Below are positions 1,249 through 17,831 of a stretch of DNA of 64,000 bases, piece by piece. The stretch lies in assembly GCA_000402515.1 (NCBI GenBank), contig AQRL01000038.1, positions 37,344 to 101,343 on the forward strand, given 5' to 3'. Below the pieces are notes generated by a model. The model searched no databases. It was not told the DNA's origin and saw nothing but the letters and a program-made list of their open reading frames with translations. The stretch is from Nanoarchaeota archaeon SCGC AAA011-G17 (lineage in GTDB: Archaea; Nanobdellota; Nanobdellia; SCGC-AAA011-G17). The stretch's first letter is position 1. Each line of letters opens with the position of its first letter. A program made the position numbers and the translations under genes.

Positions 1249-1285
1249 ATAAATATTTATATACTAGTTGATTTTAGTTAATAAA

Positions 1286-1705
1286 ATGGATGAATACACC
1301 CGTGATAATTTTTTGCATGACCTTCTCAATGATATGCATGACCTTTTAGGTGAACCAGAACAAAGACCATTTAGCGGACCAAGAAGGATTTATGGTGCTG
1401 AATATGAATTTTATGGTGATGTGGAATATCCCACTCTCAAAAGATTAGAAGGAAAGGTTCTTAATAGTGAGGTTCAGGAGATGCTAAAATTGAAGAATGG
1501 CAAGATTGAGGAATGTAAACAGAGAGGACACCATGATGTTGAGTTTGTTTATTCTTGTTCAATAGGAGATAAGGATTATATTACTGGGTTATGTAGCTCT
1601 TGTAATGTTATTGTAGCAAAAGAAAAGACAGAACCTATTCGTAAAAAAATTGCAGAATATTTCAAGACACAGAAAAGAATTAGGCATATGCCTTGCACTA
1701 TTTAA
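1286..1705 (+). CDS. Hypothetical protein with CxxC pair
   Basis: ORF only; the start is probably the internal ATG (MDEYTRD). It contains 'CSSC'. Confidence 0.3.
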   Translation: MDEYTRDNFLHDLLNDMHDLLGEPEQRPFSGPRRIYGAEYEFYGDVEYPTLKRLEGKVLNSEVQEMLKLKNGKIEECKQRGHHDVEFVYSCSIGDKDYITGLCSSCNVIVAKEKTEPIRKKIAEYFKTQKRIRHMPCTI

Positions 1706-1786
1706 AAAGTAAAACGCAACATTTATAAATACTTAATCTATATTTTTATTTTGTGAGAGAGAAAAAATCTGTTAAAATCTTTTTTA

Positions 1787-2152
1787 TTGAAAAAAAAGGA
1801 CTTTTTTCTCAGTTTGATGAAGATATTGCCTAGTTTAAGGGAAAAGAAAAGGTATTTGGTATTTGAAGTACTGAGTGAGGATAAGGTTAAAGACTTTAGA
1901 ATCATAAGAAGCGAAATACTAAATAATGTACATAGCTTTTTAGGGCAAGTAGATGCTGGAAAGGCAGGGGCAATGTTTTTGAAGGATTTATGGTTTAAGG
2001 ACAAACAAAAGGGAATATTAAGCATAAATAATAAATATGTGGATAAGGTTAAGATGTCTTTAATGCTAATAAAAAAATTAGAAGGAAAAGATGTTATTTT
2101 GAACAATATTGGATGCAGCGGAATACTAAATAAAGCTAAAAAATATATCTAA
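1787..2152 (+). CDS. rnp2: RNase P protein component Pop5 (Rpp14 family)
   Basis: Translation 'LREKKRYLVFEV' matches the Pop5 N-terminal signature. Length is ~120 aa. It sits first in the conserved Pop5-PsmA-exosome superoperon. Confidence 0.7.
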   Translation: MKKKDFFLSLMKILPSLREKKRYLVFEVLSEDKVKDFRIIRSEILNNVHSFLGQVDAGKAGAMFLKDLWFKDKQKGILSINNKYVDKVKMSLMLIKKLEGKDVILNNIGCSGILNKAKKYI

Positions 2153-2170
2153 AAAGGAGGATCATAAAAA

Positions 2171-2890
2171 ATGGAACAAACAATGTCACATCAGATGATG
2201 GGGTATGACAGGACTAGCACAATGTTCAGTCCTGATGGAAGATTATTACAGGTAGAGTATGCTAAAAAAACAGTAAGACAGGGAAGCACAGCAATAGGGA
2301 TAGTATGCAAAGACGGTGTATTATTAGTTACAGACAGAAGAGTAGCTGACAAATTAATTGTAGCAGAATCTGTTGAGAAATTATTTAAGGTAGATGATCA
2401 TATCGGCGCTGCTGTTTCTGGATTTATTAGTGATGGCAGAGTGCTAATTGAAAGAGCAAGAGTAAAGGCACAGCAATACAGAGTTACTTATGACGAGCCT
2501 ATAGATGTTCAGGAATTAGTCAAGGAAATTTCTGATGTCAAGCAGGCCTTCAGCCAGTATGGCGGTGCAAGACCTTTTGGTGTTTCAATATTATTTGCAG
2601 GAATTGATGAGAGCGGAATCAAGTTATTTGCTACAGAGCCAAGCGGGATTTTTTTCCAGTACAGAGCAACTGCCATTGGTGAAGGGGAAGTGGAGATTAC
2701 TGCTTTCTTGAATGAGGAATACAAGGATGGAATGAGTTTGGATGACGGATTGAAATTGGCTATTAAGGCTTTCAAAAAGATTCTTGGAAAAGATTTTGAT
2801 ATAAACAGGATGACTGGCGGGTATATTGATAATAATGAGAAAAAATTCACCAAATATGACATAAACCAAATCAGAAAAATAGCAAAGTAA
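2171..2890 (+). CDS. psmA: Proteasome alpha subunit
   Basis: 'GYDRTSTMFSPDGRLLQVEYAKK' is the classic alpha-subunit N-terminus. A strong SD (aaaggagga) precedes the ATG. Confidence 0.9.
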   Translation: MEQTMSHQMMGYDRTSTMFSPDGRLLQVEYAKKTVRQGSTAIGIVCKDGVLLVTDRRVADKLIVAESVEKLFKVDDHIGAAVSGFISDGRVLIERARVKAQQYRVTYDEPIDVQELVKEISDVKQAFSQYGGARPFGVSILFAGIDESGIKLFATEPSGIFFQYRATAIGEGEVEITAFLNEEYKDGMSLDDGLKLAIKAFKKILGKDFDINRMTGGYIDNNEKKFTKYDINQIRKIAK

Positions 2891-2891
2891 A

Positions 2892-3578
2892 ATGGATTTT
2901 AATAAAGCAGTTGTTGCAAAACTGAAGAAGGATGGAGAAAATTTTGAGATCTTAGTAAATTGCGACAAGGCAATTGATTTCAAGAAAGGAAAAGGAACTA
3001 TTCAGGATGCTGTTGTTGCCGAATATATCTACAAGGACAGCAAGAAGGGAGATAAGGCTTCTGAGCACGAAATAGAGAAATATTTTGAAACAACTGACTT
3101 TTATGAGGTTGCTGAAATAATTCTTAAACATGGAGAGATCCAATTAACTGCAGAATACAGGGGCAAGCTTAGAGAAGAAAAGAGGAAAAAGATTCTTGAA
3201 TTAATACATAGAAATGCTATTGATTCTCAGACAGGCTTTCCACATCCGGTAATTAGAATAGAAAAGGCTATGGAAGAGGCTAAAGTAAAGATTGATGAAT
3301 TCAAAAATGCCGAGGAGCAGATTGAGGATATTTTAGAAAAAATAAAAGAGATTATTCCAATCAAATTTGCAGTAAAAGAATTTTGGGTCAGAATACCTGC
3401 ACAGTTTGGGGGACAGGCTTATGCCATTTTCAAGAAATTCGGAAAGATTTTGAAAGAGGATTGGGGTGATGGCTTGGCTATCACTATTGAAATTCCCGGT
3501 GGAATGACAGAGGAATTTTTCAGCAAACTAAACAGCTTAACTCATGGTGATGTAGAAAGCAAGGAGATCAAGAAATGA
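2892..3578 (+). CDS. sdo1: Ribosome maturation protein SBDS/Sdo1
   Basis: 'VVAKLKKDGENFEILVNCDKAIDF' matches the SBDS N-terminal domain. The canonical position after psmA supports the call. Confidence 0.8.
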   Translation: MDFNKAVVAKLKKDGENFEILVNCDKAIDFKKGKGTIQDAVVAEYIYKDSKKGDKASEHEIEKYFETTDFYEVAEIILKHGEIQLTAEYRGKLREEKRKKILELIHRNAIDSQTGFPHPVIRIEKAMEEAKVKIDEFKNAEEQIEDILEKIKEIIPIKFAVKEFWVRIPAQFGGQAYAIFKKFGKILKEDWGDGLAITIEIPGGMTEEFFSKLNSLTHGDVESKEIKK

Positions 3579-4096
3579 ATGGAATATTTGTAAGACCAGA
3601 AACATTAGAAGAGGCATTAATGAATGAGGGATTATATTCAGGGATATTACAAGGGCTGGTTGATTCCTTTAGCGAGGATAGGAATCAGTTTGTTTTTGAT
3701 GAAATAATGGAATCTAACAAATCTGAAGAGGAAAAACTAAATATATTATCAAAAAAAGAATTTATTTTTAAAAAAGATTATAGTTTATTAAAAAGAAGAA
3801 TTAGTTATGAAGAGACAATACCTAGAAAGATATTGGTTAGTTATCCAAAGAGGTTTCTTGATAAACACTTTGGTCCAATAATTGATAAACACTTTGGTCC
3901 ACTAACATTACAGCAAGCAGTATATGCCTTTTGTAATGATAGGAATGTTTTAAGAGAATATGAAAGAGAGAAGGTAGTTGGTTCTTATTGTACTGAACAT
4001 GAGCTTTTGGAATTAGTAAAAAATAAAATGAATCCGTATGAGTATTTACTTGTTTTAAAGAATATAGGGAGGAAAAATGGGAAAAATATTAATTGA
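3575..4096 (+). CDS. Hypothetical protein embedded between SBDS and Rrp4 (overlaps both neighbours)
   Basis: It overlaps sdo1 by 4 nt and rrp4 by 20 nt. I recognise no family. It contains the internal tandem repeat DKHFGPII/DKHFGPLT. Confidence 0.4.
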   Translation: MNGIFVRPETLEEALMNEGLYSGILQGLVDSFSEDRNQFVFDEIMESNKSEEEKLNILSKKEFIFKKDYSLLKRRISYEETIPRKILVSYPKRFLDKHFGPIIDKHFGPLTLQQAVYAFCNDRNVLREYEREKVVGSYCTEHELLELVKNKMNPYEYLLVLKNIGRKNGKNIN

Positions 4097-4793
4097 GGAT
4101 AAAAGTATTGCAGTTCCTGGTGAAATATTAGCAGAGGGAATGGATTTTCTGCCTGCTGGCGGGGTATTCAGAGAGAATGACAAGATTATAGCTTCACAGA
4201 TTGGAATTGTTAATATTGATAATAGATTAGTTAAATTAATACCTTTGAACGGGCGTTACAGCCCTAAGAAGAGTGATATGGTTATTGGGGATGTTGTTAA
4301 TATAACTTTCAGCGGCTGGGTTATTGATATAGGATGCACAAATTTTGCAGTATTGCCAATAAGAGATGCAACCAGTGATTTTATTGATAAGGGTGAGGAT
4401 CTTAGCAGATATTATGGATTTAAGGACATTGTAGTTGCCAAGATATCCAATGTAAGCAAAACAAATCTTATTGACCTGACAATGAAGGGCCCCGGGCTTA
4501 TGAAAATTAAGGGGGGAATGCTGATTGATGTTACTCCTTCAAGAGTTCCAAGAATAATTGGAAAACAGGGAAGCATGATTTCTCTGCTGAAAGAGAGAAC
4601 AGGGTGCAAAATAATTGTCGGCCAAAATGGCAAGGTTTGGATCAAGGGAGAAAATTTTGAGAGTGAAAAGAAGGCAATTGATGCTATCAGGATGATTAAT
4701 AATCTGGCGCATACTACCGGACTTACTGATAAAATTTCTGAATTTTTGGGAGGAAGTGAAAATGTACAAAAGAAAGAGCAGGAAACTGGATGA
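4077..4793 (+). CDS. rrp4: Exosome complex RNA-binding protein Rrp4 (S1+KH)
   Basis: S1-like region plus KH motif 'IIGKQGSMISLLKERTGCKIIVGQNG'. The operon context supports the call. Confidence 0.85.
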   Translation: MGKILIEDKSIAVPGEILAEGMDFLPAGGVFRENDKIIASQIGIVNIDNRLVKLIPLNGRYSPKKSDMVIGDVVNITFSGWVIDIGCTNFAVLPIRDATSDFIDKGEDLSRYYGFKDIVVAKISNVSKTNLIDLTMKGPGLMKIKGGMLIDVTPSRVPRIIGKQGSMISLLKERTGCKIIVGQNGKVWIKGENFESEKKAIDAIRMINNLAHTTGLTDKISEFLGGSENVQKKEQETG

Positions 4794-5463
4794 GCCAAGG
4801 GAGATGGAGGCTAAGGTCGGAATTATAAAGAGAGCTGACGGCAGTGCGATGTTTAAGATAGGAAACACAATTGCTATGGCTGCTGTTTACGGCCCCAGGA
4901 ATTTATATCCTAAATTTATGCAAAATCCTGAAAAGGGAATTTTACGAGTTAATTATAATATGTTTTCTTTTTCAGTCAGCGAAAGGATAAGACCCGGACC
5001 AAGCAGAAGAAGCAAAGAAATCAGTTTAGTCAGCGAGAATGCTTTATTGTCCTGCCTGAACTTAGAGGAATTTCCGAATTCAGTTATAGATGTTTATATT
5101 GAAATCTTGCAGGCTGATGCCGGCACGAGATGTGCGGGTATTTGTGCTGCTTCAATGGCTCTTGCTGATGCAGGCATACCAATGAGAGATTTGGTCAGCG
5201 CTATCAGTGTCGGCAAAGTTGGGGATGCTATTGTTGTTGACCTGGATAAAGAGGAAGAGGATTATGAAGGAGGCAGTACGGACATGCCTATTGCAATGAT
5301 GCCAAGAAATGGAAAAATATCTCTGCTACAAATGGATGGAAACATGAGCAAGGAAGATATAAAGAAGGCTTTGGAGCTTGGAAGAAATACCTGTAATAAA
5401 ATTTATGAGCTGCAGAAAAGAACCTTGAAAGAGAAGTATATGGTGGAAGTTGAAAATGAATAA
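4756..5463 (+). CDS. rrp41: Exosome complex exonuclease Rrp41 (RNase PH-like)
   Basis: RNase PH domain: 'RADGSAMFKIGNTIAMAAVYGPR' and 'DAGTRCAGICAASMALADAGIPMRD'. The true start may lie downstream of 4756. Confidence 0.85.
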   Translation: MKMYKRKSRKLDEPREMEAKVGIIKRADGSAMFKIGNTIAMAAVYGPRNLYPKFMQNPEKGILRVNYNMFSFSVSERIRPGPSRRSKEISLVSENALLSCLNLEEFPNSVIDVYIEILQADAGTRCAGICAASMALADAGIPMRDLVSAISVGKVGDAIVVDLDKEEEDYEGGSTDMPIAMMPRNGKISLLQMDGNMSKEDIKKALELGRNTCNKIYELQKRTLKEKYMVEVENE

Positions 5464-6223
5464 TGTCAGCAAAGAGTATCTTCTTAGCCTATTACAGAGC
5501 GGAAGGAGATTAGATGGAAGAAAATTAAATGAATACAGAGATATTAAAATTGAATTAAATGTCAGCAAGAATGCAGAGGGCAGTGCAAGGGTTAAGTTGG
5601 GGAATAGTGAGGTTATAGTTGGTGTTAAGCTAGAGGTTGGAACACCTTTTCCTGATATGCCTGATGAGGGGAGCATTATTGTTACTGCTGAATTATTGCC
5701 TTTCTCAAATCCTGAGTTTGAATCAGGACCACCAAATTCACAGAGTATTGAATTGGCAAGGGTTGTTGACAGGGGAATCAGGGAGAGCAAGGCGCTTGAT
5801 TTCAAAAAATTGTGCATTGTAGAGGGAGAGAAGGTCTGGCTTGTACTAATTGATATTTATACTATTAATGATGAAGGGAATTTACAGGATGCTGCTGCTC
5901 TTGCTGCAATGGCTGCTTTAATGCATGCAAAGATTCCAAAGTATGATGGAAACAAGGTTGATTATCATGAGCATAGTGGAAATCTTCCATTAACAAGAAA
6001 ACCTCTTGAGTGCACTGTAATGAAGATAGGAGAGCATTTTATAGTTGATCCTGTTAAGGAAGAGGAGGCTTTTGTTGATGCCAGATTAACTGTTGCGGTA
6101 ATAGAGGACGGGAATGTCTGTGCAATGCAGAAGGGCGGAGAGAAAGCCTTAAGTATTGAAGATGCAGAAAAAATGATTGAAATTGCTATTGAAAAGACAA
6201 ACGAGATGAGGAAGAAACTATGA
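5450..6223 (+). CDS. rrp42: Exosome complex component Rrp42 (inactive RNase PH-like)
   Basis: 'LDGRKLNEYRDIKIELNVSKNAEGSARVKLGNSEVIVGVK' has the RNase PH fold. It directly follows rrp41. Confidence 0.85.
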   Translation: MKMNNVSKEYLLSLLQSGRRLDGRKLNEYRDIKIELNVSKNAEGSARVKLGNSEVIVGVKLEVGTPFPDMPDEGSIIVTAELLPFSNPEFESGPPNSQSIELARVVDRGIRESKALDFKKLCIVEGEKVWLVLIDIYTINDEGNLQDAAALAAMAALMHAKIPKYDGNKVDYHEHSGNLPLTRKPLECTVMKIGEHFIVDPVKEEEAFVDARLTVAVIEDGNVCAMQKGGEKALSIEDAEKMIEIAIEKTNEMRKKL

Positions 6224-6465
6224 GCTTTGGAACAGATAAATATGAAAGATATGAAGATTGTTCTAGACGTTGTGGTATACCTTTTCCGGAAAGTAGACAA
6301 ACACAACTTAGGAATATACCTATAGGTGAGTCATTTGTAAAGGATGGTAAGTTATACTACAACAATGGAGATGGTACAGCTGAACCAGCAATAGGTCCTA
6401 GAGTTAATTGTGGTGATGATACTTCAGAAAATTTTTCATTAGACACAATAGTAAAAAGAAGGTGA
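6220..6465 (+). CDS. Hypothetical small protein, translationally coupled to rrp42
   Basis: 4-nt overlap with rrp42. No zinc-ribbon typical of L37ae, which normally occupies this slot. Confidence 0.35.
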   Translation: MSFGTDKYERYEDCSRRCGIPFPESRQTQLRNIPIGESFVKDGKLYYNNGDGTAEPAIGPRVNCGDDTSENFSLDTIVKRR

Positions 6466-6477
6466 GCGGGGGAGAAA

Positions 6478-6699
6478 ATGAATGAAACTATTGAAAAGTG
6501 TTTAGAAGATGCTCAAACAGACAGAAAAATGGCAGAAAAAGAGTTTAGGGATACGTCTGATGGTAATTATAAAGGGGATATAGGTACTGAATTAAAAATG
6601 CATAATGCCTTAAATGGTATTTATTATATGTTGGGTGCTTTATACCATCAGCAAGAAGCAATTATTGCTCAAAATGAGGAAAGAAGTGGAAAAAAATGA
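6478..6699 (+). CDS. Hypothetical small protein, translationally coupled to rpoK
   Basis: RBS gggggag upstream. The stop overlaps the rpoK start. Confidence 0.35.
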
Positions 6700-6908
6700 A
6701 TTATACAAAATATGAAAAGGCAAGGATAATCGGGGCAAGGGCTTTGCAGATTTCAATGGGCGCTCCTTTGTTACTGAAATTAAAGAAAGAAGACTTTGAA
6801 AAAATAAATTACAGGCCTGTAGAGATTGCAAAGATGGAGTTTGAAAAGGGGATAATTCCAATTACGGTAAGGAGACCTATGCCTAACAAAGTAGCTGGAA
6901 AAGAATAA
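6696..6908 (+). CDS. rpoK: DNA-directed RNA polymerase subunit K (Rpb6 homolog)
   Basis: '[23 protein letters not shown]' is the RpoK/Rpb6 signature. Confidence 0.8.
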
Positions 6909-6944
6909 TAAAATTTATAAGGCTGACTTCTTTTTCTTTTAGTT

Positions 6945-8129
6945 ATGAAGATTAAAGGCATTAAAGCGCGAAAGATATTAAATTCTAAGGGTGAATTAAC
7001 TATTGAGATAGAGGTTGACGGCTTTAGGGCTTCTATCGGCAATGGAACAAGTGTCGGAAAATTTGAGGTTGTTGCACTGCCTCCTGATTTAGATAAACTA
7101 GTTGAATTGGTTAATCACAAATTGAACAAAGAGCTTGGAGGCTTGTCTATTAATTCTTTTGATGACCTTGATAAGATTGAAAGGGCAATAAAGACAATAG
7201 ACGCAAGCAGTAATTTCAAGGAAATAGGGGGAAATATTCTTGTTAATTTAGAGCTTGCTTTGCTAAAGGCTGCGAGTGAGAATAATGTGTGGAAGTTTTT
7301 AGATCCTAAGGTTAAAAAGATGCCAATACCAATTGGGAATATTGTTGGAGGGGGAAAGCATTCTGGAGCAAACTGCCCGGATATCCAGGAATTTTTAATT
7401 ATACCAAAAACTAAGGATATTTTTGAGGCGGTATTTGTAAATGCCAAATTTCATGAATTAATAAAAGATGATATAATCAAGAGAGACAAGAATTTTAATT
7501 TTGGCAGGAATATTGAGGGTGCATGGTGCCCTAACCTGAATAATTATGAAGTGCTTGACATGCTGAACAAATTCAGAGAGAGAATTGAAAAGGAGTTCAA
7601 GGTTAAAGTAAGTCTTGGAATTGATTTAGCTGCCTCTGGATTATGGAACGGGAGGAAGTACCAGTACAGGAATTATTCAAGGTTCAGGCAGAAGAGAGTT
7701 TTATCCAGAGAAGACCAGATTGGTTTTGTTAAGAAGTTAATAGCTAATTATGATTTGAAATATGTTGAAGACCCATTACAAGAGGAGGATATTGAAGGGT
7801 TTAAGGAATTAAAAGGAGATTGTATGATTGTTGGTGATGATTTGATTGCTACAAACTTAGACAGAATAAGACTGGCGCAAGAGGCTATCAATGGGGTAAT
7901 TATAAAACCAAACCAAATTGGAAGCCTTTTGAAAGCAAAGGCGGTAGTTGACTTTGCTAAGAGCAAGAAAATGAAAATAATTGTAAGCCATAGAAGCGGC
8001 GAGACAGAGGATAATGTTCTTGCTCATTTAGCTGTCGGCTGGGAGGCTGATTATATCAAGACAGGGATTGTTGGGGGAGAGAGGACAAGCAAGCTGAATG
8101 AGTTGTTGAGGATTAGCGAGAACTTGTAG
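6945..8129 (+). CDS. eno: Enolase (divergent)
   Basis: Exact enolase motifs 'IIKPNQIGSL' and 'SHRSGETED'. The canonical rpoK-eno-S2 neighbourhood supports the call. Confidence 0.85.
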   Translation: MKIKGIKARKILNSKGELTIEIEVDGFRASIGNGTSVGKFEVVALPPDLDKLVELVNHKLNKELGGLSINSFDDLDKIERAIKTIDASSNFKEIGGNILVNLELALLKAASENNVWKFLDPKVKKMPIPIGNIVGGGKHSGANCPDIQEFLIIPKTKDIFEAVFVNAKFHELIKDDIIKRDKNFNFGRNIEGAWCPNLNNYEVLDMLNKFRERIEKEFKVKVSLGIDLAASGLWNGRKYQYRNYSRFRQKRVLSREDQIGFVKKLIANYDLKYVEDPLQEEDIEGFKELKGDCMIVGDDLIATNLDRIRLAQEAINGVIIKPNQIGSLLKAKAVVDFAKSKKMKIIVSHRSGETEDNVLAHLAVGWEADYIKTGIVGGERTSKLNELLRISENL

Positions 8130-8183
8130 AAAAGTATATAAATAAATAATCTATATTAAATAATATATAAAGGAGGTGTTTGA

Positions 8184-8849
8184 ATGAATTTTATTGATAC
8201 TGGGAGTGCAATTCTTAATCCGTTTCAAAGCATCTGGATTAGTTTTGTGGGGATATTACCCTCATTAATTGCTGCCCTGCTTTTGATTATACTTGGTTAT
8301 TTATTGGGGACTGTTTTGGGGCATATTCTAAAATTAGCATTAGAGAAGATTGGCGTTGAGAAGAAATTACAGAAAATAGAGCTGACAAGAAATATCGGCA
8401 AGATGCATTTCTCTGCAATATGCGGTGAATTATTGAAATGGTATGTATTAATTATATTTTTGCAGGCAGGCGTTGATTTATTAAATCTTGGAACTTTATC
8501 TGATGTCCTGACAACCTTTGTCAACTGGATGCCACAGCTTATTGTTGGTGTAATCGTAATATTATTCGGAATGCTAATTGCACATTATGTTGAATTGAAA
8601 ATCAGAGAGAACAGCGATGTTAAGGGAGTAAGACTAAGTGCAGTTGCCCTGAAATGGGTAATTGTATTTGCGGTTATATTGACTGCATTAAAACAAATCG
8701 GTCTTGATATCAGCTTGTTTGAGAATGCGTTCTATCTAGTCTTTGGTGCAATAGCAATAGGTCTTGCTCTGGCTCTTGGAATAGGATTGGGATTAGGAAT
8801 GAGAAAGGGTGGAGAGAAATTTATAGACAAGATAATGAATAACTTTTAA
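8184..8849 (+). CDS. Multi-pass membrane protein (unknown function)
   Basis: Several hydrophobic helices. SD aaaggagg upstream. The stop lies inside the 35-bp direct repeat. Confidence 0.5.
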   Translation: MNFIDTGSAILNPFQSIWISFVGILPSLIAALLLIILGYLLGTVLGHILKLALEKIGVEKKLQKIELTRNIGKMHFSAICGELLKWYVLIIFLQAGVDLLNLGTLSDVLTTFVNWMPQLIVGVIVILFGMLIAHYVELKIRENSDVKGVRLSAVALKWVIVFAVILTALKQIGLDISLFENAFYLVFGAIAIGLALALGIGLGLGMRKGGEKFIDKIMNNF

Positions 8850-8871
8850 TTCTTTTTTTTCTTTTATTTTT
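8837..8871. repeat. 35-bp perfect direct repeat, copy A (copy B at 10199..10233); spans the stops of the converging genes and a T-tract
   Basis: gaataacttttaattcttttttttcttttattttt is identical at both sites. Confidence 0.8.
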
Positions 8872-9619
8872 TTGATATTTTCCATAAAGTATAAAAGTAT
8901 TGTTTGAATCCTTCTGCAAGTGTTTTGCTTCTAATAAAAATTGTGATTTCTTTTTCTTCTTTTTTTAGAATTGGGATGATTGTGATGTCTTTGTAAATAT
9001 TTATAGGAATTGCGCTTGTTTGATCTAAGAATCTTTCTTCGTTATATTTGTTTATTTTTTGGTGGTGCTCTTTTACACCCCTTAAGTTTTTTGTAAAAAT
9101 AACCTTTGTTCTTATCTTTGCGTTTATTCTTTTTTTATGGAAGTTTAGGAAAAAATTTAATTGCTGTTTATTTAGCGTATCGTCAACACCAAATACAAGA
9201 AATTCTTCTTCTTGATTGAATTCATTTTCTACTATCTGGAAGGCATTTTTTAAACCCCGAAATCCTTCAAAGATTTCTGTTCTTTGTTTTTGTATATTTG
9301 AAGATTGAATATTCATGAGAGTTGGTAATAATTCTGAAATTTCTTTTTCCTGTTCTTTTATTTTTTCTTGTTTTTTATGGAGTAAATCCAATAAAAAATT
9401 TGGCGGAGAAGCATTGTAATGTCTAACTTTATTTTTAAAAGAGATTGAAACTAATCCTTTTTGAACTAGTTTATCAAGAATGTCATATATTTTTGATTTT
9501 GTCACCCCGGATTCCTTAACTATACCCCCTATAGATGATTGCCCTATTTTTAATAAAGCAAGATATGCTTTTACTTCTCCATTTGTTAAACCTATTTCAT
9601 ATAGAATCTCTTTGTTCAT
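8864..9619 (-). CDS. TrmB-family transcriptional regulator (paralog 1 of 3)
   Basis: N-terminal wHTH 'YEIGLTNGEVKAYLALLKIGQSSIGGIVKESGVTKSKIYDILDKLVQKGLV' is TrmB-like. It has a C-terminal sensor-like domain. Paralogs at 15977 and 19211 share the 'LWKISKK' C-terminus. Confidence 0.7.
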   Translation of the reverse strand: MNKEILYEIGLTNGEVKAYLALLKIGQSSIGGIVKESGVTKSKIYDILDKLVQKGLVSISFKNKVRHYNASPPNFLLDLLHKKQEKIKEQEKEISELLPTLMNIQSSNIQKQRTEIFEGFRGLKNAFQIVENEFNQEEEFLVFGVDDTLNKQQLNFFLNFHKKRINAKIRTKVIFTKNLRGVKEHHQKINKYNEERFLDQTSAIPINIYKDITIIPILKKEEKEITIFIRSKTLAEGFKQYFYTLWKISKK

Positions 9620-9739
9620 ATTATTTCAAGAGTATCATTACTTATAAATCTTATTATAGTATCCCCCTTAGGGGAAGGATATATTTATAAACGTATAATT
9701 TTATGATACTACTATATAATAAGTAATGGATGTAATAAA

Positions 9740-10204
9740 GTGAAAATAATAAAGAATATAGCAAAGGGAGTATTAATGGGTAGTTTAGGTGCAATTATCT
9801 TTGGGTATTTATCATATATGCCACCTAATTCAAGCAAACAGTTAGAACAACAAAGGATAGAAAAAATTAAATCTGTAATAGAACCATATCATGGAAAAAT
9901 GCTTGAAGTAACAGTTACCGGACTTGATTTTGGTCGTGGTCGTTATGGTGGTCATGGTCTAGGGATTAGATTCTATGATGTTGATGGTGATGGTAAAACC
10001 GTAGAACAGTATGTTAGATCTATTGAAACAAATACTCTACCCCCTTACTGTTATAGGTATGTTGAAACAGATTTAATAAGACAAGGTCAAAAACCAGAGT
10101 TTAACCCACAAAATATTAATAATGTAAGAAGAGAGATGACAAAAACAGAAGCAGCAATTTTGGATAAAGAGTATCAAGGTCTTTTAGGCAAGTTTAAAGA
10201 ATAA
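9740..10204 (+). CDS. Hypothetical protein with N-terminal TM anchor
   Basis: ORF with a hydrophobic N-terminus. The stop lies inside repeat copy B. Confidence 0.4.
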   Translation: MKIIKNIAKGVLMGSLGAIIFGYLSYMPPNSSKQLEQQRIEKIKSVIEPYHGKMLEVTVTGLDFGRGRYGGHGLGIRFYDVDGDGKTVEQYVRSIETNTLPPYCYRYVETDLIRQGQKPEFNPQNINNVRREMTKTEAAILDKEYQGLLGKFKE

Positions 10205-10233
10205 CTTTTAATTCTTTTTTTTCTTTTATTTTT
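10199..10233. repeat. 35-bp direct repeat, copy B
   Basis: Identical to 8837..8871. Confidence 0.8.
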
Positions 10234-10276
10234 ATCGAGAGTAAGCTTTATAAATGGAGTTTTTCTGATTCTTATC

Positions 10277-10873
10277 ATGGCTACAGAAAATCAAGAAACA
10301 TTATTAGTTCCCTTGGATAATTACCTAAAGGCAGGGTTACATATTGGGACAAAGTTCAGGACCAAATATATGGCTCCTTTTATTTACAAGGTTAGGAATG
10401 ACGGTTTAAGCGTATTAAATGTACAAGAGGTAGATAACAGGATTAATATTGCTTCTAAGTTTTTAAGCCAGTATGCTCCTGAGGACATTTTAGTTGTCTG
10501 CAGGAGAGAGAATGGGTGGCAGGCTGTAAGGCTTTTTTCCAAGGCTACAGGGGTTAGGGTTTTTGCTGGGAGATATACACCAGGGGCACTGACTAATGCA
10601 AACCTGAAGGAATTTTTTGAGATTAAATTATTGATAGTAACTGATCCATGGCCTGACAAGAATATTGTTGATGATGCCTTAACATTGGGAATTCCGGTAA
10701 TTGCCCTATGCGACACAAACAATACAAGCAACGGCATTGACTTTGTTGTTCCATGCAATAACAAGGGAAAGAAGAGCCTGGGATTGATATTCTGGATATT
10801 TGCTAATGAGTATTTGAAGAACAGAAAACTAGGAATATTAAAGGCAACTATAGAAGATTTCTGCGCTGATTAA
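10277..10873 (+). CDS. rps2: 30S ribosomal protein S2 (uS2)
   Basis: 'LLVPLDNYLKAGLHIGTKFRTKYMAPFIYKVRNDGLSVLNV' and a C-terminal 'VIALCDTNN' region are typical of archaeal S2. The position after eno supports the call. Confidence 0.85.
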   Translation: MATENQETLLVPLDNYLKAGLHIGTKFRTKYMAPFIYKVRNDGLSVLNVQEVDNRINIASKFLSQYAPEDILVVCRRENGWQAVRLFSKATGVRVFAGRYTPGALTNANLKEFFEIKLLIVTDPWPDKNIVDDALTLGIPVIALCDTNNTSNGIDFVVPCNNKGKKSLGLIFWIFANEYLKNRKLGILKATIEDFCAD

Positions 10874-11558
10874 GATTTTTCAACTTTCCAAAATTATAAA
10901 TTTTGTCCTCTATTACATAGACTTCAAAATTAGAGATATTTTTTAAGAAAGGGGATAATAATCTTTGGCTTGCTATATCTGTCCCTTCTGTTAGTTGATT
11001 AAATGATGGCATTACGATTATATTCTTATTTTTCCATTTTCCTTTCAGGAAGCACTTGTATTTCTCTTTTCTTATCTTATCTGATATTGTTATTGCCGGA
11101 TGCTCATGTCCAATAATTATTGTTTTTGTTTTTATTTCTTTTAGCTTGTCTCCGTGAAGGATTGTTATTCCTTTTGTTTTGTAAGATTCAAGAATCTGGA
11201 CATTTCTTTTATTAGCAATCGGCCCTATTATTTTATCATGATTACCTCTGATTAGTATTACTGGTGCATAATTTAAACATAAATCAAGAATCTTTAAGGT
11301 GTTTCTCCATTCCTGCTCTGAGATAATCCCGAATTCGTGCTTTAAATCTCCGTTGATTATTATTCTTTTTATTTCTAACTTATCTAAAATATTTTTTAGT
11401 CTTTTTTCAATCTCTTTAAACTGAAATCTTGGAATCAGAATTCCCTGCTTGTTCATTGCTTCTTCCTGCCCGATATGCAGGTCTGCTATAATTAGTATTT
11501 TTTCTTTTTTCAAGTACAAAGCCAAATCTACAATTTCTATATTTTTTAGGATTTCCAT
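10848..11558 (-). CDS. Calcineurin-like metallophosphoesterase (Mre11/SbcD-type motifs); Lhr-associated MPE-like
   Basis: Motifs D-x-H 'IADLHIG', GD 'INGDL', 'GNHD', and GH-x-H 'IGHEH'. It lies immediately downstream of the Lhr helicase on the same strand, as in Lhr-MPE operons. Confidence 0.7.
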   Translation of the reverse strand: MEILKNIEIVDLALYLKKEKILIIADLHIGQEEAMNKQGILIPRFQFKEIEKRLKNILDKLEIKRIIINGDLKHEFGIISEQEWRNTLKILDLCLNYAPVILIRGNHDKIIGPIANKRNVQILESYKTKGITILHGDKLKEIKTKTIIIGHEHPAITISDKIRKEKYKCFLKGKWKNKNIIVMPSFNQLTEGTDIASQRLLSPFLKNISNFEVYVIEDKIYNFGKLKNLNQRRNLL

Positions 11559-11559
11559 T

Positions 11560-14500
11560 TTAGATTATATGCTCTTTTCCTATCTTTGCCATAACTAAGT
11601 TATGCATCCTTTGTATGAATTCCTGTTTGTCTTCTATTTTATAGATATCTGTATGCGCCTGTATTATTAAGTTGAATGCAAATGGAGAGGGTATTGTTGT
11701 ATTTATTTCTTTTATTTTTATTTTTTCATCTTCAATCTGTTTCAGAACTAATTCTGCATTATTAATGTCCATCAGGTCTTCAAAAACCTCCCTCTTTGTT
11801 TCTTTTATTAGTGAGAAATTTGGAGAGATTCTTTTTAATGCGTTCATCAAAATCATTGAAGAGACCTGCTGCCTTCCAACTCTTTTTTTATAACCCTTAT
11901 ACTCCCTTAAAATCATTAAAGAGCGAGTTGCTACATGCCTAAACCTTCTTGAAAGAACCTGTGTTTTATCTATTGCCAGTTCCATTATTTTCTGCAGTTC
12001 AGATGATTTTATTTTTGAAAGGGCCTGTGTTGCCTGAATATTTGTTTCAGAAGAAAGATAAAAACCATTGTCGTTTATTCCTATTTCAACGTCTTTGTGC
12101 TGAAACCTTGAGATTGCATAGGCTAATGCCCTTGATAATACATCATTTACCCTCCTTCCGTATAATGAATGGAAGATTACGTATTTTTTTTTGTCTCCTG
12201 CATAGCAGTATTCAATCACGATTTTTTTATCATTTGGAATCTCTTTTTTATAGAGGAACTGCTCCCTAAAATATTCATAAATTGCATTTGCTGCATTTTC
12301 ATCTATGTAGAGATAATCGAGAATGAACTTAATAATCTCCTCTTTATTTCTTTTTGCCAGCATTTTTTCTTCAACTAACCTCCTGAATTTTCCTATTTCT
12401 AATGCCAAATCAAAGGATAAAGGAAGCATTTCTGAGAACCAGGAGGGGATTGTTGGAAGTTTGCTGACTGTTGCCTGGACTTGGGCGGTCATTCCACGAC
12501 TGAATAGGAAAATGTATCTATTTCCTCCCAATATGAAAACATCTCCTCTTTTTAGCTTCTCAAGAAATAATTCATCTATATGGCCTACAGTCTGCTCTCC
12601 TATTTTTACTGAGATAAAGGATTCATCTGGAATTGTTCCTATATTGGTCATGTAAATCATTCTTGCTAGTTTTCCCTTTTTTCCAATCATGCCTGTTTCT
12701 TTGTCATACCAGATTTTTGCATAGATATGGCGGTCTTCTAGGCTTGAATATTCCCCTGATAGATATTCTATTATTTCCCTGAAGTCTGTCATTGACAAAT
12801 CTTTATATGGGTAAGCCTGCCTTACTAGATTGTATAACTCTTTATAGCTAATCTGATTTGAGATTGCTATTCCGTAGATCTGCTGGGCAAGAACATCGAG
12901 GCAGTTTTTTGGAATGTGAATCTTGTCTATTTTTTTTTCTATTGCTGATTTTAAAAGTACAGAGCACTCTACTAAATCATCCCTGTCTAATACTATAATC
13001 CTTCCTTTTGATGTTTCATGCAGCTTGTGCCCTGACCTGCCAATTCTCTGAATCGCTCGAGCTATACTTTTAGGACTTCCCAATAGAATTACTAAATCAA
13101 TATAACCAATATCCAAACCTAACTCTAATGATGTACTACAAACAACTACCTTTAATTTTCCTTCCCTTAGTTTTTGCTCTATGTTAAAGCGGTGCTCTTT
13201 TGACAGAGAGCCGTGATGGGCTCCAATATTTTCTGTATAATTCTGGGGGAATTTATCTTTAAGATGATAGACTACTCTTTCTGTTGCTGAACGTGTGTTT
13301 GTGAATATCAGGGTTGTTTTATGTTGCTGTATCAAGGAATCAATTAAGTTATACATCTCGGTATGGAGCTTTTCTGGTTCAATATTAATTATGTCGGGCA
13401 CTGGAGAAAGAACTTTTAGATCCATTTTTTTGATAAACTGAGAATCAACTATTTTACATGGTCGTGTTTTTCCATTTTCCAGTCCTACTAAGAATTGCGC
13501 TATTTCTTCTAATGGCGAAATTGTAGCTGAAAGGCCTATTCTTGTTAGTGGTTCTTTTGTTAGGGCTTGTAATCTTTCTAGAGATAGTGATAAATGAGTG
13601 CCTCGTTTCGAATCTGCTAAGGCATGAATCTCGTCTATTACCAGATATCTTGTACTTTTTAGATGTTCTATGAATTTTGTTGAGGTCAAAACAATTGCCA
13701 ATGATTCCGGAGTACAAAGAAGAATATGGGGAGCTTTGTTGGACATCTTTTGCTTTTCAGATGCTGTTGTATCTCCTGTTCTTACTGCTATTCTTATCCC
13801 AAATTTCTTTTCTGCTAATTTTTCTATTTCTTCCAGTGGTGTTTTTAGATTAACTTCTATATCCCTTGTTAATGCCTTAAGCGGAGAAACGTAAACAGCG
13901 TATGTTTTGTCTTCCAACATATTATTTTCTGAGAGATTTATTAATTCATTTAGGATTGAGAGAAATGCTGTTAAGGTATTATGCAGGTATATTCCCCCAT
14001 ACCCTCCAACGAAATTATGTATATCTGGAACTGTTAAATCAATAACTTTTCCATTATATTCAAACTCCTTAATTTCTTTTACTTTAAGCCAACAAATATT
14101 TTTATTTAACAACTCGTCAATTTCTTTAAATAAACCATTTAAATTTTTATTATTAAACTTTATAATTTTGTTTTTTAAATTTGTTAAAGCAATTTCAGTT
14201 ATATAACCTGTTCTTCTTACTACTTCATAAATAGTTCCAAATTCTTTATTAAATTCTATATCATTTTTACATAGTTTTGACAAGTTTCTAATCTTTTTGT
14301 AATCAAATTTATGTTTTAAAACACATTCTCCGTTAGATTTTTTTAGTATTTGTTTTTCTAATAAAAAATGGTTTGGATGATCTATATCTACTTCTTCTAA
14401 GAATAATTTAATATTTTTTATTTTTCTAATAATCAAGGAATAATATTCTCTTCTAGTTTTATTTATTGTATTTGAAGCATACCTTATTGGCTTGTTTATG

Positions 14501-15858
14501 GAGGAAAATATACCCAATGATAATAGTAAATAATTGATAATTTCAATCTTATTTTTATTAGATTGATGTAAGATAATCTCTCCACCTTCTTTTGAAATTG
14601 TAGATTCCAAAGAAAAAAATACATTTAGAAAATTAGTTTTTATATCTTTCTTTGCATCAAGAAGCCAGTTTGGTAAAGAAACATATCTTCCTCTTCCGAT
14701 TTTTATTTCTAATAAATCTCTTAAAAAATAACAAAATAATGTAAAATCTACAGAATAATCTTTTTCATTTTTTTGTTTGAACTTCACATCAAATAGTTTT
14801 TTGCTATTCTTAAAAAATTCTTTTAACAAATATTTTCTATTCTTTTGTGAAACAGCTAAGTGAGTTCCCCTTTCATAATCCCCAATAAACCCCTCTGCAA
14901 GAACAAATGATAACCACCTTGCTAACTTTATATCTACTTTTTTAGGATATCTAAAAGAGAAAGTATTATTCCCCTTGTTTTTAACAATTATCCTGTTTTT
15001 TTCAAATTTAACTTTTTTACATTCTTTTTTAAATAAATTAAATAATAATTCTTTTTTATAATTTGTTTGCTTGTTGAATAAATTATATACCTGGCTTATT
15101 GATAATCCTATTTTATTCCCTAAGTCAGCAAAGGATGTTTTTTGTAAGGTCTTAATTTCATACAGTTCTTTGATAGTTAAATTATTAAAATTGTTAAAAT
15201 TATTTGTTTTCTTTTTTAATCTTAAATAATCTTCATAAATAATGGATATTCCAGCTTTATCTTTTAAATTTTGTATTGCTAGCTTGTAATCCAGAAAAAT
15301 CTCTCTCTCAGGCAATTTAATTGTTTTTGGTACAGCTATTTTATCTTCTTTTTTGATATCTTTTGCAGGAACCCATCCTTTTCCTTCAACGAGTAATGGA
15401 TGATCTTTGCTGAGTTTTATTTCCCGACCATATTCTGTCCTTATTTTCAATAATGTATCTTTGGTGTCTTCAAAATAAACTAATGCCTTTGTCTTTTTAA
15501 TTTGATTTTCGTCCAATGAAAAACTTTTTAGAGATGATAGACTGTATAACTCTCCTGTTTTATCAATATTTGTTATTTTTTTACCTTTCTTTTTTGCTAT
15601 TTCCATTAATTCTTCTGCCTTTAGCAATTTTGTACGACCATCTAACTCTAATAAAATATTTGTATCTGGAGTTATGCATTTTGTTGCTCCTGTTGGTGCT
15701 GATATTAGAATGTTATTTTCATTATGAATTTCCATTACGCCATATAGCTGTGGGAGTGAAAACTCCTTAAACTTTGTAAAGAACCACTGCTTTACTATTG
15801 GGTTTAGGATTTTCTCTATCTGCTCTTTTGTGTGAGGTTTTTCCAAATAGGTTATCAT
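11560..15858 (-). CDS. lhr: Lhr-type ATP-dependent helicase (DEAH/DExH box) interrupted by an in-frame intein
   Basis: The extein reads 'SAPTGATK|TLTAFLSIL', 'YVSPLKALTRD', 'RTGDT', 'LLCTPESL', 'LVIDEIHAL'. These are Lhr-core motifs. The extein is ~865 aa. Confidence 0.8.
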   Translation of the reverse strand: MITYLEKPHTKEQIEKILNPIVKQWFFTKFKEFSLPQLYGVMEIHNENNILISAPTGATKCITPDTNILLELDGRTKLLKAEELMEIAKKKGKKITNIDKTGELYSLSSLKSFSLDENQIKKTKALVYFEDTKDTLLKIRTEYGREIKLSKDHPLLVEGKGWVPAKDIKKEDKIAVPKTIKLPEREIFLDYKLAIQNLKDKAGISIIYEDYLRLKKKTNNFNNFNNLTIKELYEIKTLQKTSFADLGNKIGLSISQVYNLFNKQTNYKKELLFNLFKKECKKVKFEKNRIIVKNKGNNTFSFRYPKKVDIKLARWLSFVLAEGFIGDYERGTHLAVSQKNRKYLLKEFFKNSKKLFDVKFKQKNEKDYSVDFTLFCYFLRDLLEIKIGRGRYVSLPNWLLDAKKDIKTNFLNVFFSLESTISKEGGEIILHQSNKNKIEIINYLLLSLGIFSSINKPIRYASNTINKTRREYYSLIIRKIKNIKLFLEEVDIDHPNHFLLEKQILKKSNGECVLKHKFDYKKIRNLSKLCKNDIEFNKEFGTIYEVVRRTGYITEIALTNLKNKIIKFNNKNLNGLFKEIDELLNKNICWLKVKEIKEFEYNGKVIDLTVPDIHNFVGGYGGIYLHNTLTAFLSILNELINLSENNMLEDKTYAVYVSPLKALTRDIEVNLKTPLEEIEKLAEKKFGIRIAVRTGDTTASEKQKMSNKAPHILLCTPESLAIVLTSTKFIEHLKSTRYLVIDEIHALADSKRGTHLSLSLERLQALTKEPLTRIGLSATISPLEEIAQFLVGLENGKTRPCKIVDSQFIKKMDLKVLSPVPDIINIEPEKLHTEMYNLIDSLIQQHKTTLIFTNTRSATERVVYHLKDKFPQNYTENIGAHHGSLSKEHRFNIEQKLREGKLKVVVCSTSLELGLDIGYIDLVILLGSPKSIARAIQRIGRSGHKLHETSKGRIIVLDRDDLVECSVLLKSAIEKKIDKIHIPKNCLDVLAQQIYGIAISNQISYKELYNLVRQAYPYKDLSMTDFREIIEYLSGEYSSLEDRHIYAKIWYDKETGMIGKKGKLARMIYMTNIGTIPDESFISVKIGEQTVGHIDELFLEKLKRGDVFILGGNRYIFLFSRGMTAQVQATVSKLPTIPSWFSEMLPLSFDLALEIGKFRRLVEEKMLAKRNKEEIIKFILDYLYIDENAANAIYEYFREQFLYKKEIPNDKKIVIEYCYAGDKKKYVIFHSLYGRRVNDVLSRALAYAISRFQHKDVEIGINDNGFYLSSETNIQATQALSKIKSSELQKIMELAIDKTQVLSRRFRHVATRSLMILREYKGYKKRVGRQQVSSMILMNALKRISPNFSLIKETKREVFEDLMDINNAELVLKQIEDEKIKIKEINTTIPSPFAFNLIIQAHTDIYKIEDKQEFIQRMHNLVMAKIGKEHII
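13978..15678 (-). mobile_element. Intein (567 aa) with LAGLIDADG homing-endonuclease domain, inserted between Lys and Thr of the Lhr Walker-A motif
   Basis: It starts with Cys ('CITPDTNILLELDG') and ends 'VGGYGGIYLHN', followed by Thr+1. DOD motifs are 'WLSFVLAEGFIGD' and 'FLNVFFSLEST'. Confidence 0.8.
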
Positions 15859-15976
15859 TATAAAATATTAATAAATTAGATTTATAAAGGCTACGAGGGC
15901 ATGTCAAGTGTGTCAAGTGAATGGAAGATATATATTGTAGTATATACTTTAATGTCTAAAATTTCTTTTAAAAAGC

Positions 15977-16720
15977 TTACTTTTTAGATATTTTCCATAA
16001 CAATTCAAAATGCTTTCTTTGAGTTTCTGCTATTTCTCTGCTTTTTATTAAAATCCCAAAAGGTTGTGAGCCCCACATTATAATTGATACTTTTTCCCCA
16101 TAAATGTTTGTTGAGGAATTAGAAGTAAATTCTTTTGATAGTATCCTTGCTTCTGTATGTTTTAGTTTATTCAGCTCTTTAACTCTTTGTCTTAAATCTT
16201 CAGATAATAAAATTTTATAGTATATTTTCTTTTTTTCTCTTATCTTATGAAATTTTGGAAGATTAAATTGTAGATGATATTGGAATGCTTCTGCTTCTAT
16301 TTCTGATGCCCCTATTGTAAGAATCTCATCTTTTTGATTTAACATATCATCTAATAATGATTTTATCCCCCTATTCCCCTTAAAAATAGTTGCTTCCTGC
16401 TCTTCTTTCTGTCTTTTTTCTTTTAATTCTGGGAGTATTTTCTTAAATTCCTCTTCCTGCTGCTTTATTTTTTCTTTTTCTTGACTAAAATAATCTAAAA
16501 ATTGCTCTGGATTAGAAGCCTTGAAATATTTCCTATTTGCCTGTATTACATATGAAGCCAGACCCTTTTCTATTAACTTATTTAAAGCATCATAGACTAT
16601 TTGCCTGTGCAATCTCGTTTTTTCTATAACTGCTTTTGCTGATGTTAGCCCTATTTCCAGCAATGCAAGATAAACATCAGACTCATTCTTTGTTAATCCC
16701 AACTTCTCTAGTTCTTTCAT
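15977..16720 (-). CDS. TrmB-family transcriptional regulator (paralog 2 of 3)
   Basis: 'LGLTKNESDVYLALLEIGLTSAKAVIEKTRLHRQIVYDALNKLIEKGL' is a TrmB HTH. The C-terminus 'LLWKISKK' is shared with the other paralogs. Confidence 0.7.
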   Translation of the reverse strand: MKELEKLGLTKNESDVYLALLEIGLTSAKAVIEKTRLHRQIVYDALNKLIEKGLASYVIQANRKYFKASNPEQFLDYFSQEKEKIKQQEEEFKKILPELKEKRQKEEQEATIFKGNRGIKSLLDDMLNQKDEILTIGASEIEAEAFQYHLQFNLPKFHKIREKKKIYYKILLSEDLRQRVKELNKLKHTEARILSKEFTSNSSTNIYGEKVSIIMWGSQPFGILIKSREIAETQRKHFELLWKISKK

Positions 16721-16833
16721 AAATTTTGATTGATTTTTTGTTATATAAATCTTACTATTATCGTCATTTATTTGATGACAATATTTTAAATATACTATTT
16801 GTAAAAACTAGCTAGTAATGAATAAGGAAAAAA

Positions 16834-17355
16834 ATGATAGGGAAAGATGGAAGAGATTATACCTCCACGGATGCTAAAAATGCTGAATCTAGAGGAGATT
16901 ATGAAAAAGCATTTGAGATATATAAACTTGGGTGGGATAATCATGGATTAGAGCTAGCTATAAGAATAAATGATTCTAATAGGTTTAAGGAGTTTTATGA
17001 TGAAGGATTGACAATAATGATGCTTGAGAGTGAATATTTAAGGGCTCTTGAAATTGCTAAGAATAATGGAGATACAAAAAGATTAAAAGAAATTTATAAT
17101 GCAGGGTTAAATCATTTTAGTAATATAAGTTATTTTAATGAAGCAATAAAATTAGTTGAATTTATGGGTGATGACCCTAAAAGAGAGACTCTTTATCAAA
17201 AAGCAGAAGATGAAGCAAATCTGAGATTGAGTTCTTACGAGAAACAATTAAAAAAAATGTTAATGAAAGTAGGAGTATGGACTAAAATAAGAGATGCTTG
17301 TAGAGAAAGAAGTAATGTTCTCGATGATTTACTTAAAATTGAGAATAAAATATAA
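16834..17355 (+). CDS. Hypothetical protein
   Basis: ORF only, helical-repeat-like. Confidence 0.35.
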   Translation: MIGKDGRDYTSTDAKNAESRGDYEKAFEIYKLGWDNHGLELAIRINDSNRFKEFYDEGLTIMMLESEYLRALEIAKNNGDTKRLKEIYNAGLNHFSNISYFNEAIKLVEFMGDDPKRETLYQKAEDEANLRLSSYEKQLKKMLMKVGVWTKIRDACRERSNVLDDLLKIENKI

Positions 17356-17356
17356 A

Positions 17357-17716
17357 ATGGCATTTAAGAGATATGAACTAAAACTTGAAAATCGTATGGA
17401 TGAAGTATCCTGTTTATCAGACGAGAAGAAATTATTTGATAAGCAAATTAGAGATAGTTATTCTAATTGTCAGGTAAAACTTTATCCTTCTACTTATGAT
17501 ATAAATGGAAATACAATAATTATGAGGGGGGAAGAAATAAGTGATGGATATGGATATATAGATGGTCGGCTTAGATTAACAGCATTGATTATTGGAAAAT
17601 CCAAAGAAATTCTTAATGTTAAATCACGCTTGGAAAAAAAGACTTCATTTAAACTTAAAGAGTTAGAATACGATCATCGAATGAATAATCCAGAAGCTAC
17701 GATAAAACCACTATAA
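17357..17716 (+). CDS. Hypothetical protein
   Basis: ORF only. The ATG at 17357 immediately follows the upstream stop; the listed 17294 start would overlap. Confidence 0.35.
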   Translation: MAFKRYELKLENRMDEVSCLSDEKKLFDKQIRDSYSNCQVKLYPSTYDINGNTIIMRGEEISDGYGYIDGRLRLTALIIGKSKEILNVKSRLEKKTSFKLKELEYDHRMNNPEATIKPL

Positions 17717-17831
17717 CACAATCAACAAAATAAGATTAATAGAGAAAAGTAAGTTATCATTTTCTTATACAAAATAGGAAGTTATTTAAGGCTGATTAGC
17801 ATAATTATTAAAAAATAAATGGGGTGATAAA

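Follow-up and report, generated by a model that had tools for sequence, protein, structure and literature searches.

A 64,000-nt stretch of the genome of Nanoarchaeota archaeon SCGC AAA011-G17 (contig AQRL01000038.1, positions 37,344 to 101,343, forward strand; here called the window, whose positions are used as coordinates) carries a perfect 35-nt direct repeat, GAATAACTTTTAATTCTTTTTTTTCTTTTATTTTT, at 8837–8871 and 10199–10233. Upstream of the repeat pair lie the genes for RpoK (6696–6908) and enolase (6945–8129), both identified by Pfam, and a plus-strand gene (8184–8849) for a 221-amino-acid (aa) membrane protein with MscS-type transmembrane-helix repeats (PF05552, E = 3.2e-11). Downstream is the plus-strand gene for ribosomal protein S2, rps2 (10277–10873; PF00318), whose product is most similar (up to 73% identity) to S2 from metagenome-assembled genomes of Woesearchaeota and Nanoarchaeota, with 71 to 73% identity to the best Woesearchaeota relatives. 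The segment between the copies, referred to here as the cassette, contains only two genes: a minus-strand gene for a 251-aa TrmB-family regulator, TrmB251 (8864–9619; PF01978, E = 2.6e-15, 56.5 bits against a cutoff of 25.6), and a plus-strand open reading frame (ORF) of 154 aa with a GTG start, ORF154 (9740–10204), which is publicly annotated as 142 aa from the ATG at 9776.

Copy A of the repeat (8837–8871, plus strand) takes in the final 4 codons of the membrane-protein gene, its stop (TAA at 8847–8849), and the T8, T4, and T5 tracts that follow. The last 8 nt of this copy (8864–8871) hold the minus-strand TrmB stop and two and two-thirds codons (the KK codons). Copy B (10199–10233, plus strand) lies directly upstream of the rps2 promoter and contains the last codon and stop of ORF154 (TAA at 10202–10204), which reads into the repeat as KE-stop. 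If one mismatch is allowed, the repeat grows to 39 nt (8833–8871 versus 10195–10233). A further lengthening to 52 nt at 90% identity was rejected, because the extra likeness (ggcaag versus gacaag) reflects the conserved GKF C terminus of the ORF154 family. The window contains exactly two copies of the 35-mer and no others at up to 3 mismatches, with 0 expected in 100 shuffles. The first-pass annotation of this DNA had reported the identical 35-mer, the stop codons within its copies, and the two genes between them, all of which were borne out by our searches.

In both copies, the stop codon is directly followed by runs of at least five T's, and the 22 nt after it take in the T8, T4, and T5 tracts. 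Archaeal transcription termination at oligo-T tracts is established, and T-rich terminators follow many archaeal genes. The oligo-T tracts of the repeat are probably the terminator of the membrane-protein gene, and T-rich spacers equivalent to that of the window are present in all relatives compared. Within the sequences searched, the 35-mer is not a common terminator element, a concern raised by the first-pass annotation: of 241 million metagenome records scanned with a 30-mer, 2 contigs matched, both from this locus, and the 35-mer was absent from a viral collection.

The TrmB gene and ORF154 are transcribed divergently from a 120-nt region (9620–9739), in which a minus-strand TATA box of the TrmB gene (9641–9648) and a TATA box of ORF154 (9684–9691) could be recognized by sequence. 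Between the two TATA boxes is a G+C-rich, palindrome-like site, TATCCCCCTTAGGGGAAGGATA (9660–9681). In a relative from the Hainich groundwater metagenome (L085; L numbers, L001 to L105, denote the comparison loci and contigs), the site is a perfect ATCCCC-N4-GGGGAT, and the promoter region is 90% conserved relative to the window. TrmB proteins bind such inverted repeats at the transcription factor B recognition element (BRE)/TATA box (PMC4158304), and the site is probably a TrmB operator. The closest solved structure to TrmB251 is TrmBL2 (PDB 5bpd; E = 4.7e-8, residues 11 to 198), whereas the match to TrmB (PDB 3qph) is limited to the winged helix at residues 5 to 94, and no Pfam match to a C-terminal sugar (effector) binding domain was found past residue 73. 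TrmB251 is therefore predicted to have a TrmBL2-like architecture, consisting of a winged helix and a C-terminal part that matches no sugar-binding domain. It resembles the TrmBL2-type regulators (PDB 5bpd; PMC4158304) in its PF01978 winged helix, its length (∼250 to 260 aa), and its palindrome at divergent promoters, but the similarity is weak, and there are many paralogs per genome, each with a divergent accessory gene. Other genomes encode orthologs of TrmB251 (62 to 70% identity) in unrelated surroundings, and the small ORF with which each is divergently paired differs from case to case.

ORF154 has an N-terminal hydrophobic anchor, an invariant FYDxDGDGKTVEQYV motif, and just three known homologs. 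Neither ORF154 nor the small ORFs found at this position in relatives, ORF176 included, have a Pfam match, and ORF154 also has no PHROG match. Exact database look-ups of the window's ORF154 (from the GTG start) and S2 returned no match, because the database versions begin at other start codons, and an AlphaFold model of ORF154 built from a three-sequence alignment (predicted local distance difference test score, 39.5) was not used. The arrangement of promoters and the candidate operator suggests that the cassette is a regulator plus its single regulated gene. Its G+C content is 27 to 33%, compared with 36 to 38% in the flanking core genes.

To place the cassette in its genomic context, 80 S2-centered loci were compared. 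The cluster Rrp42-RpoK-(Eno)-S2 is common among them. The first-pass annotation held that the cassette separates enolase from S2, and eno is indeed directly beside rps2 in some genomes (L011, L055, and L062). In the clade nearest the window, however, the order is enolase, membrane gene, S2 (L007, L019, L093, and L094), and a membrane gene directly upstream of rps2 is conserved in many Woesearchaeota; the cassette thus parts the membrane gene from rps2. Empty sites, which the first-pass annotation had expected to show eno followed by rps2, were found with the membrane gene preceding rps2 in L093 (membrane protein 73% identical), L007, L001, L002, L008, L019, L066, and L070. There, a gap of 49 to 134 nt separates the stop of the membrane gene from the rps2 ATG and contains a T-rich spacer and then a TTTATAAA box. 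In the window, the rps2 promoter region (10234–10276, plus strand) reads gagagtaagc TTTATAAA, with the box at 10247–10254, 22 nt ahead of the ATG; the region is intact and is conserved in strains with other genes at this position. Joining window positions 8850–8871 to 10234–10276 rebuilds the layout of the empty site: terminator, gagagtaagcTTTATAAAT, and ATG. Thus, the segment is an insertion, as first proposed, and it lies between the membrane-gene terminator and the rps2 BRE/TATA promoter.

The same two-copy structure is present in a single amplified genome (SAG; L083, assembly GCA_000402735.1, contig AQSE01000052.1), which is 99.3% identical over 4.2 kb. It recurs in a Logan contig (L084) and, at ∼87% identity, in contigs from three assemblies of the Hainich groundwater metagenome. 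Because independent assemblies carry it, the repeat is not an assembly artifact. In L085, one of the Hainich relatives, the far-side copy, downstream of ORF155, is 51 nt long (2833–2883) and 100% identical to window 8822–8872; 27 nt of it, corresponding to the last nine codons, are coding sequence of the membrane gene. The repeat therefore derives from duplication of the target and is not an element borne by the cassette. Compared with L085, the window is missing ∼33 nt between the GKF C terminus of the ORF and the repeat, and ORF154 consequently now runs into the repeat. The opposite junction lies within microhomology. The TrmB paralogs of this subfamily all end in LWKI(S/A)K(K/P)-stop, which reads TTATTTTTTTGATATTTTCCA on the plus strand, and the first 8 nt of that sequence coincide with the end of the terminator; TTATTTTT is common to the terminator end and to the conserved TrmB C terminus WKISKK-stop.

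The insertion point is a hotspot that varies among strains. Between the membrane gene and rps2, L089 carries 6.2 kb (1086–7270) with an IS240-like DDE transposase gene, a proteasome-like gene, and the gene for an AAA_15/AAA_21 ATPase whose partner is DUF3226-like. The membrane protein of L089 is 97% identical to that of the window, and the ATPase and its partner look like a defense pair. Other cargos consist of three small minus-strand ORFs (L090/L104), two small winged helix-turn-helix-like ORFs (L094/L096), housekeeping genes (L003, L005, and L006), or an array of TrmB246 plus ORF176, then TrmB251 plus ORF155, then three more ORFs (L085/L086). When nine junctions were aligned, all cargos diverged in the column right after the T-rich element. 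The membrane-gene coding sequences of L089, L091, and L092 show 0 differences in 666 positions, yet their cargo differs, so the turnover of cargo at the site is fast relative to point mutation. An edit-distance scan showed that the second copy of the repeat accompanies TrmB cargo only; none was present in L089, L090, L093, or L094/L096. Since other cargo occupies the same point without a repeat, a recombinase acting on the 35-mer does not define the hotspot.

The two TrmB cassettes of L085 have TrmB proteins that are 31% identical and partner ORFs that are unrelated. A degenerate T-rich copy between these cassettes is weak evidence only, as 9 of its 20 matching bases are the TrmB stop and KK codons. 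Placement of the Hainich array at a second locus was considered and rejected, since the 3′ end of the enolase gene lies at the start of L091, separated from the membrane gene by a small additional ORF. The spacer between enolase and the membrane gene is also variable among Hainich strains, with an 80-aa ORF in L091 (56–335) and a 122-aa ORF in L081 (1100–1600). Identity between window 6682–19438 and L083 is a mosaic (99.3% from eno to S2, 89% in the helicase gene lhr, and 97.5 to 98.5% beyond), which suggests frequent homologous recombination among strains.

Divergence estimates indicate that the insertion is not recent. Between the window and L085, the synonymous divergence (dS) of TrmB251 is 0.24, with a ratio of nonsynonymous to synonymous divergence (dN/dS) of 0.07, and that of ORF154 (2347–2814 in L085) is 0.255, with a dN/dS of 1.0 and an N-terminal half that is nearly unalignable. 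The membrane gene of the window has a dS of 0.28 relative to L089 and 0.54 relative to L081. The cassette has thus diverged in step with its flanks, and the insertion is older than the split of the window and Hainich lineages. The 35-mer, on the other hand, shows 0 substitutions between its copies and is identical in L081 as well, and in other strains the element varies in T-run length only. At such an age, ∼8 or more differences would be expected in the element under neutrality; because none is seen, it must be constrained or homogenized. Both copies are probably conserved because both act as terminators.

Similar duplications flank two more TrmB cassettes in the window. When the window was scanned for exact direct repeats (≥15 nt, within 12 kb), just three non-tandem pairs longer than 20 nt emerged, the 35-mer among them. 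The second pair, GAAAAAACAGAAGAGTTTGGGTGA (24 nt exact, 31 nt with 1 mismatch), duplicates the 3′ end of the RNase HII gene: on the plus strand, the left copy (19184–19214) contains the final 10 codons of RNase HII with its stop and overlaps the stop of a third TrmB paralog, and the right copy (21464–21494) lies on the far side of a cassette (19211–21434) that encodes TrmB3 (19211–19963, minus strand), a methyltransferase (20035–20733, plus strand), and a Vut_1 transporter (20730–21434, plus strand). The TrmB stop is inside the left repeat copy here too, as at the 35-mer locus. In the Hainich contigs L104 and L105, RNase HII is followed by the unrelated ORF111 and then SMC, with no TrmB3 cassette; an empty site for this cassette was not obtained among these contigs, as ORF111 replaces both the cassette and ORF120.

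The remaining TrmB cassette (15851–17761) contains TrmB2 (15977–16720, minus strand), ORF173, and ORF140 and is bounded by a 9-nt duplication, GTTATCATT, at 15851–15859 and 17753–17761 that includes the lhr start codon. This cassette is absent from L083 (10880–10910) and L104 (5580–5600), where the lhr start abuts a DUF5652 gene at a single GGTTATCATT. After the insertion, the lhr promoter was apparently provided by the cassette end. L083 has a module of its own (6205–8306; ORF120, isochorismatase, and TrmB236) between a Metallophos gene and lhr that is found in neither the window nor L104, and the TrmB236 stop overlaps the lhr stop. The third long pair from the scan (61247–61316 and 63732–63801) is 70 nt at 94% identity. 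The ∼2.4 kb that it encloses contain a HicA/HicB-like pair along with small Cys-rich ORFs and one that is retropepsin-like, and glycosyltransferase N-terminal fragments (IIPAYNEE) flank its second copy on both sides. The duplications share no motif and range from 9 to 70 nt in length, which favors a sequence-independent process over one site-specific enzyme or transposase.

Features of dedicated recombination systems were sought at the locus. No recombinase or transposase domain was detected by Pfam in the cassette or in 29 window ORFs, consistent with the first-pass annotation, which had found no integrase, and none was detected in the alternative cargos save for the IS240-like gene in L089. 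Both strands of both repeat copies fold no better than shuffled sequences (z = +0.15 to +2.1), no terminal inverted repeats are present at the three TrmB cassettes, and neither a tRNA nor an Rfam match occurs at the locus. The viral collection contained no relatives of the TrmB gene or ORF154, and PHROGs yielded nothing useful.

The explanation that we favor, with confidence slightly above even, is that the cassette entered by a sequence-independent insertion and that the duplication is a recombination scar rather than the attachment site of a dedicated recombinase. A low-G+C, self-contained module, comprising a TrmBL2-like regulator, divergent promoters with a putative palindromic operator, and a fast-evolving, probably membrane-anchored protein, entered between the terminator and the rps2 BRE/TATA box. 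The insertion duplicated the target end, of which 35 to 39 nt are left in the window and 51 nt in the Hainich relative. The duplication might have arisen through single-crossover (Campbell-type) entry of a circularized fragment via a few tens of bases of homology, which would duplicate the shared segment, or through microhomology-guided template switching or one-sided illegitimate joining that re-entered the target upstream of the exit point. Copy A would have been kept because it terminates the membrane-protein gene, and copy B because it gives ORF154 its last codon, stop, and terminator and may shield the rps2 promoter from read-through.

Bacterial work has described Campbell-type insertion-duplication as well as homology-facilitated illegitimate recombination. 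As in those processes, the insert is flanked by a duplicated shared segment, no dedicated recombinase is required, and a junction lies in microhomology. Unlike in those processes, the homology would be just 35 to 51 nt, and no circular intermediate or donor was observed. To our knowledge, such insertion has not been demonstrated in DPANN archaea, and our literature search found no paper that covers it in archaea.

Several rival explanations were weighed against insertion with a recombination scar. In islands formed by tyrosine integrases, such as the archaeal integrative elements that target tRNA genes, the direct repeats at the attachment (att) sites are copies of the target gene's 3′ end. 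The first-pass annotation had read the repeat as an att-like duplication produced by cassette insertion; the target duplication stands, but an att origin, in which the copies would be the attL and attR of a decayed remnant of an integrative plasmid or virus or of a small element mobilized in trans, appears unlikely. It would account for a repeat of a few tens of bases that consists of the target gene's 3′ end and terminator and leaves the gene intact, for its length (35 to 51 nt is typical of archaeal att cores), and for the lower G+C content and strain variability of the insert, and the tandem TrmB cassettes of L085 with T-rich copies between them resemble tandem site-specific insertions. However, the insert is just 1.33 kb and carries neither an integrase gene nor a remnant of one, the target is a protein gene with its terminator, and inserts at the identical point in L089, L104, and L094/L096 lack a second copy. 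The other TrmB cassettes of the same genome have unrelated 31-nt and 9-nt duplications, the element has no hairpin, no relatives were found in viral contigs or PHROGs, and the cassette codiverged with its flanks. The L085 array, in which small cassettes stack at one site with copies of one element between them, also recalls integron cassettes, the archaeal ones included, and integrons and attC clusters without an integrase are reported in Nanoarchaeota (PMC9668308). An integron-like gene cassette with the T-rich element as attC is nevertheless extremely improbable, as attC works as a folded single strand whereas this element has no stem, there is no IntI, each cassette has divergent promoters with their own TATA boxes and two opposed genes instead of one promoterless ORF, and the repeat holds coding sequence of the neighboring core gene.

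The 27 nt of membrane-gene coding sequence in the far-side copy of L085 and the tandem paralogs elsewhere in the window would also suit a tandem duplication of the membrane gene, or unequal crossing-over, in which the body of the second copy was later replaced by the cassette. This history is distinctly improbable, since it requires at least 2 extra events, leaves no membrane-gene remnant past the 51 nt, and would need a separate duplication for each of the RNase HII and lhr-start repeats; the L085 cassettes, with their dissimilar TrmB proteins and unrelated partner ORFs, are not recent tandem copies. The 9-nt duplication of the TrmB2 cassette, a length typical of several insertion sequence (IS) families, the clean empty site of this cassette in two strains, and the IS240-like transposase in the L089 hotspot could be taken to indicate a transposon or a miniature inverted-repeat transposable element with target-site duplication. 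Against this, none of the three cassettes has inverted ends, no transposase lies in or near them, and duplications of 9, 31, and 35 to 51 nt do not fit one transposase, which makes a transposon highly improbable. Finally, there may have been no event at all, the repeat being either a pair of convergently similar terminators, which are T-rich after many archaeal genes, or an artifact of assembly, given that short assemblies break at the repeat (L084 and L087). We give this hardly any credence, because 0 chance matches are expected, part of the repeat is coding sequence from the gene upstream, and the SAG, Logan contigs, and three metagenome assemblies from Hainich all show the structure.

Other observations weigh against a recombination scar formed by sequence-independent insertion. 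A repeat made of the target-gene 3′ end is the classic signature of integrase-mediated integration, and because the search covered 64 kb of this genome and a 14-kb SAG stretch, an integrase acting in trans or more 35-mers could be located elsewhere. The recurrent link to TrmB and the TrmB stop inside the left copy in two cases hint at something beyond random illegitimate insertion. Gene conversion or repeated excision and reintegration, instead of selection on terminators, could explain why the copies are perfectly identical across mutable T-runs, and both the terminator and the operator functions are predicted from sequence features. Moreover, no recombination intermediate or donor context was seen in the sequences compared that would distinguish Campbell-type entry from template switching or from one-sided illegitimate recombination. 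A doubtful but more far-reaching explanation is that TrmB-headed modules, each a TrmBL2-like regulator with 1 to 3 divergent accessory genes, are integrase-less mobile cassettes of Woesearchaeota that enter at gene ends with 9- to 51-nt duplications and are moved by an unrecognized host activity or by the TrmB-like protein. The duplicated gene end would then permit precise excision and re-entry, which would explain why cassettes differ between strains with identical flanks.

Bacterial populations have hotspots, or flexible genomic islets, that lie between conserved core genes. The site upstream of rps2 is similar to them in that many cargos, including a putative defense ATPase and an IS, are found at one intergenic point in strains that are otherwise nearly identical. 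It differs in its DPANN host, in its position directly upstream of rps2 in the exosome-rpoK-eno-rps2 cluster, and in the target duplications that accompany some of the cargo. No description of the hotspot or of TrmB cassettes in DPANN archaea was found in the literature.

DPANN genomes are tiny, and their gene gain and loss are poorly known; this locus provides a concrete, datable example. Here, a regulator and its putative target entered as a unit at a hotspot beside a ribosomal-protein promoter, with the scar probably reused as a terminator. Like scars, with other sequences and lengths, surround two more TrmB modules within 12 kb, and close strains differ in such modules, which suggests a general, integrase-free way to gain genes. 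If the pattern holds genome-wide, it would point to sequence-independent insertion with target duplication as a chief route by which these organisms gain new regulation, and genetic tools could make use of natural landing sites of this kind; otherwise, the locus represents an ordinary, well-documented insertion scar.

Additional features were noted in the window. A fourth TrmB-domain protein (292 aa, 51309–52187; PF01978, E = 4e-6) is encoded in a run of same-strand genes and has no flanking repeat. The Lhr helicase (11560–15858) is 1,432 aa long in the window versus 865 aa in L083 and L104, with the extra part at 13960–15679, and Lhr of L094 has intein and LAGLIDADG matches. The SMC ORF (22057–27072; 1,671 aa) has an apparent insertion right after the P-loop (GSGK|CLIG...VHN|S) that is intein-like in appearance.

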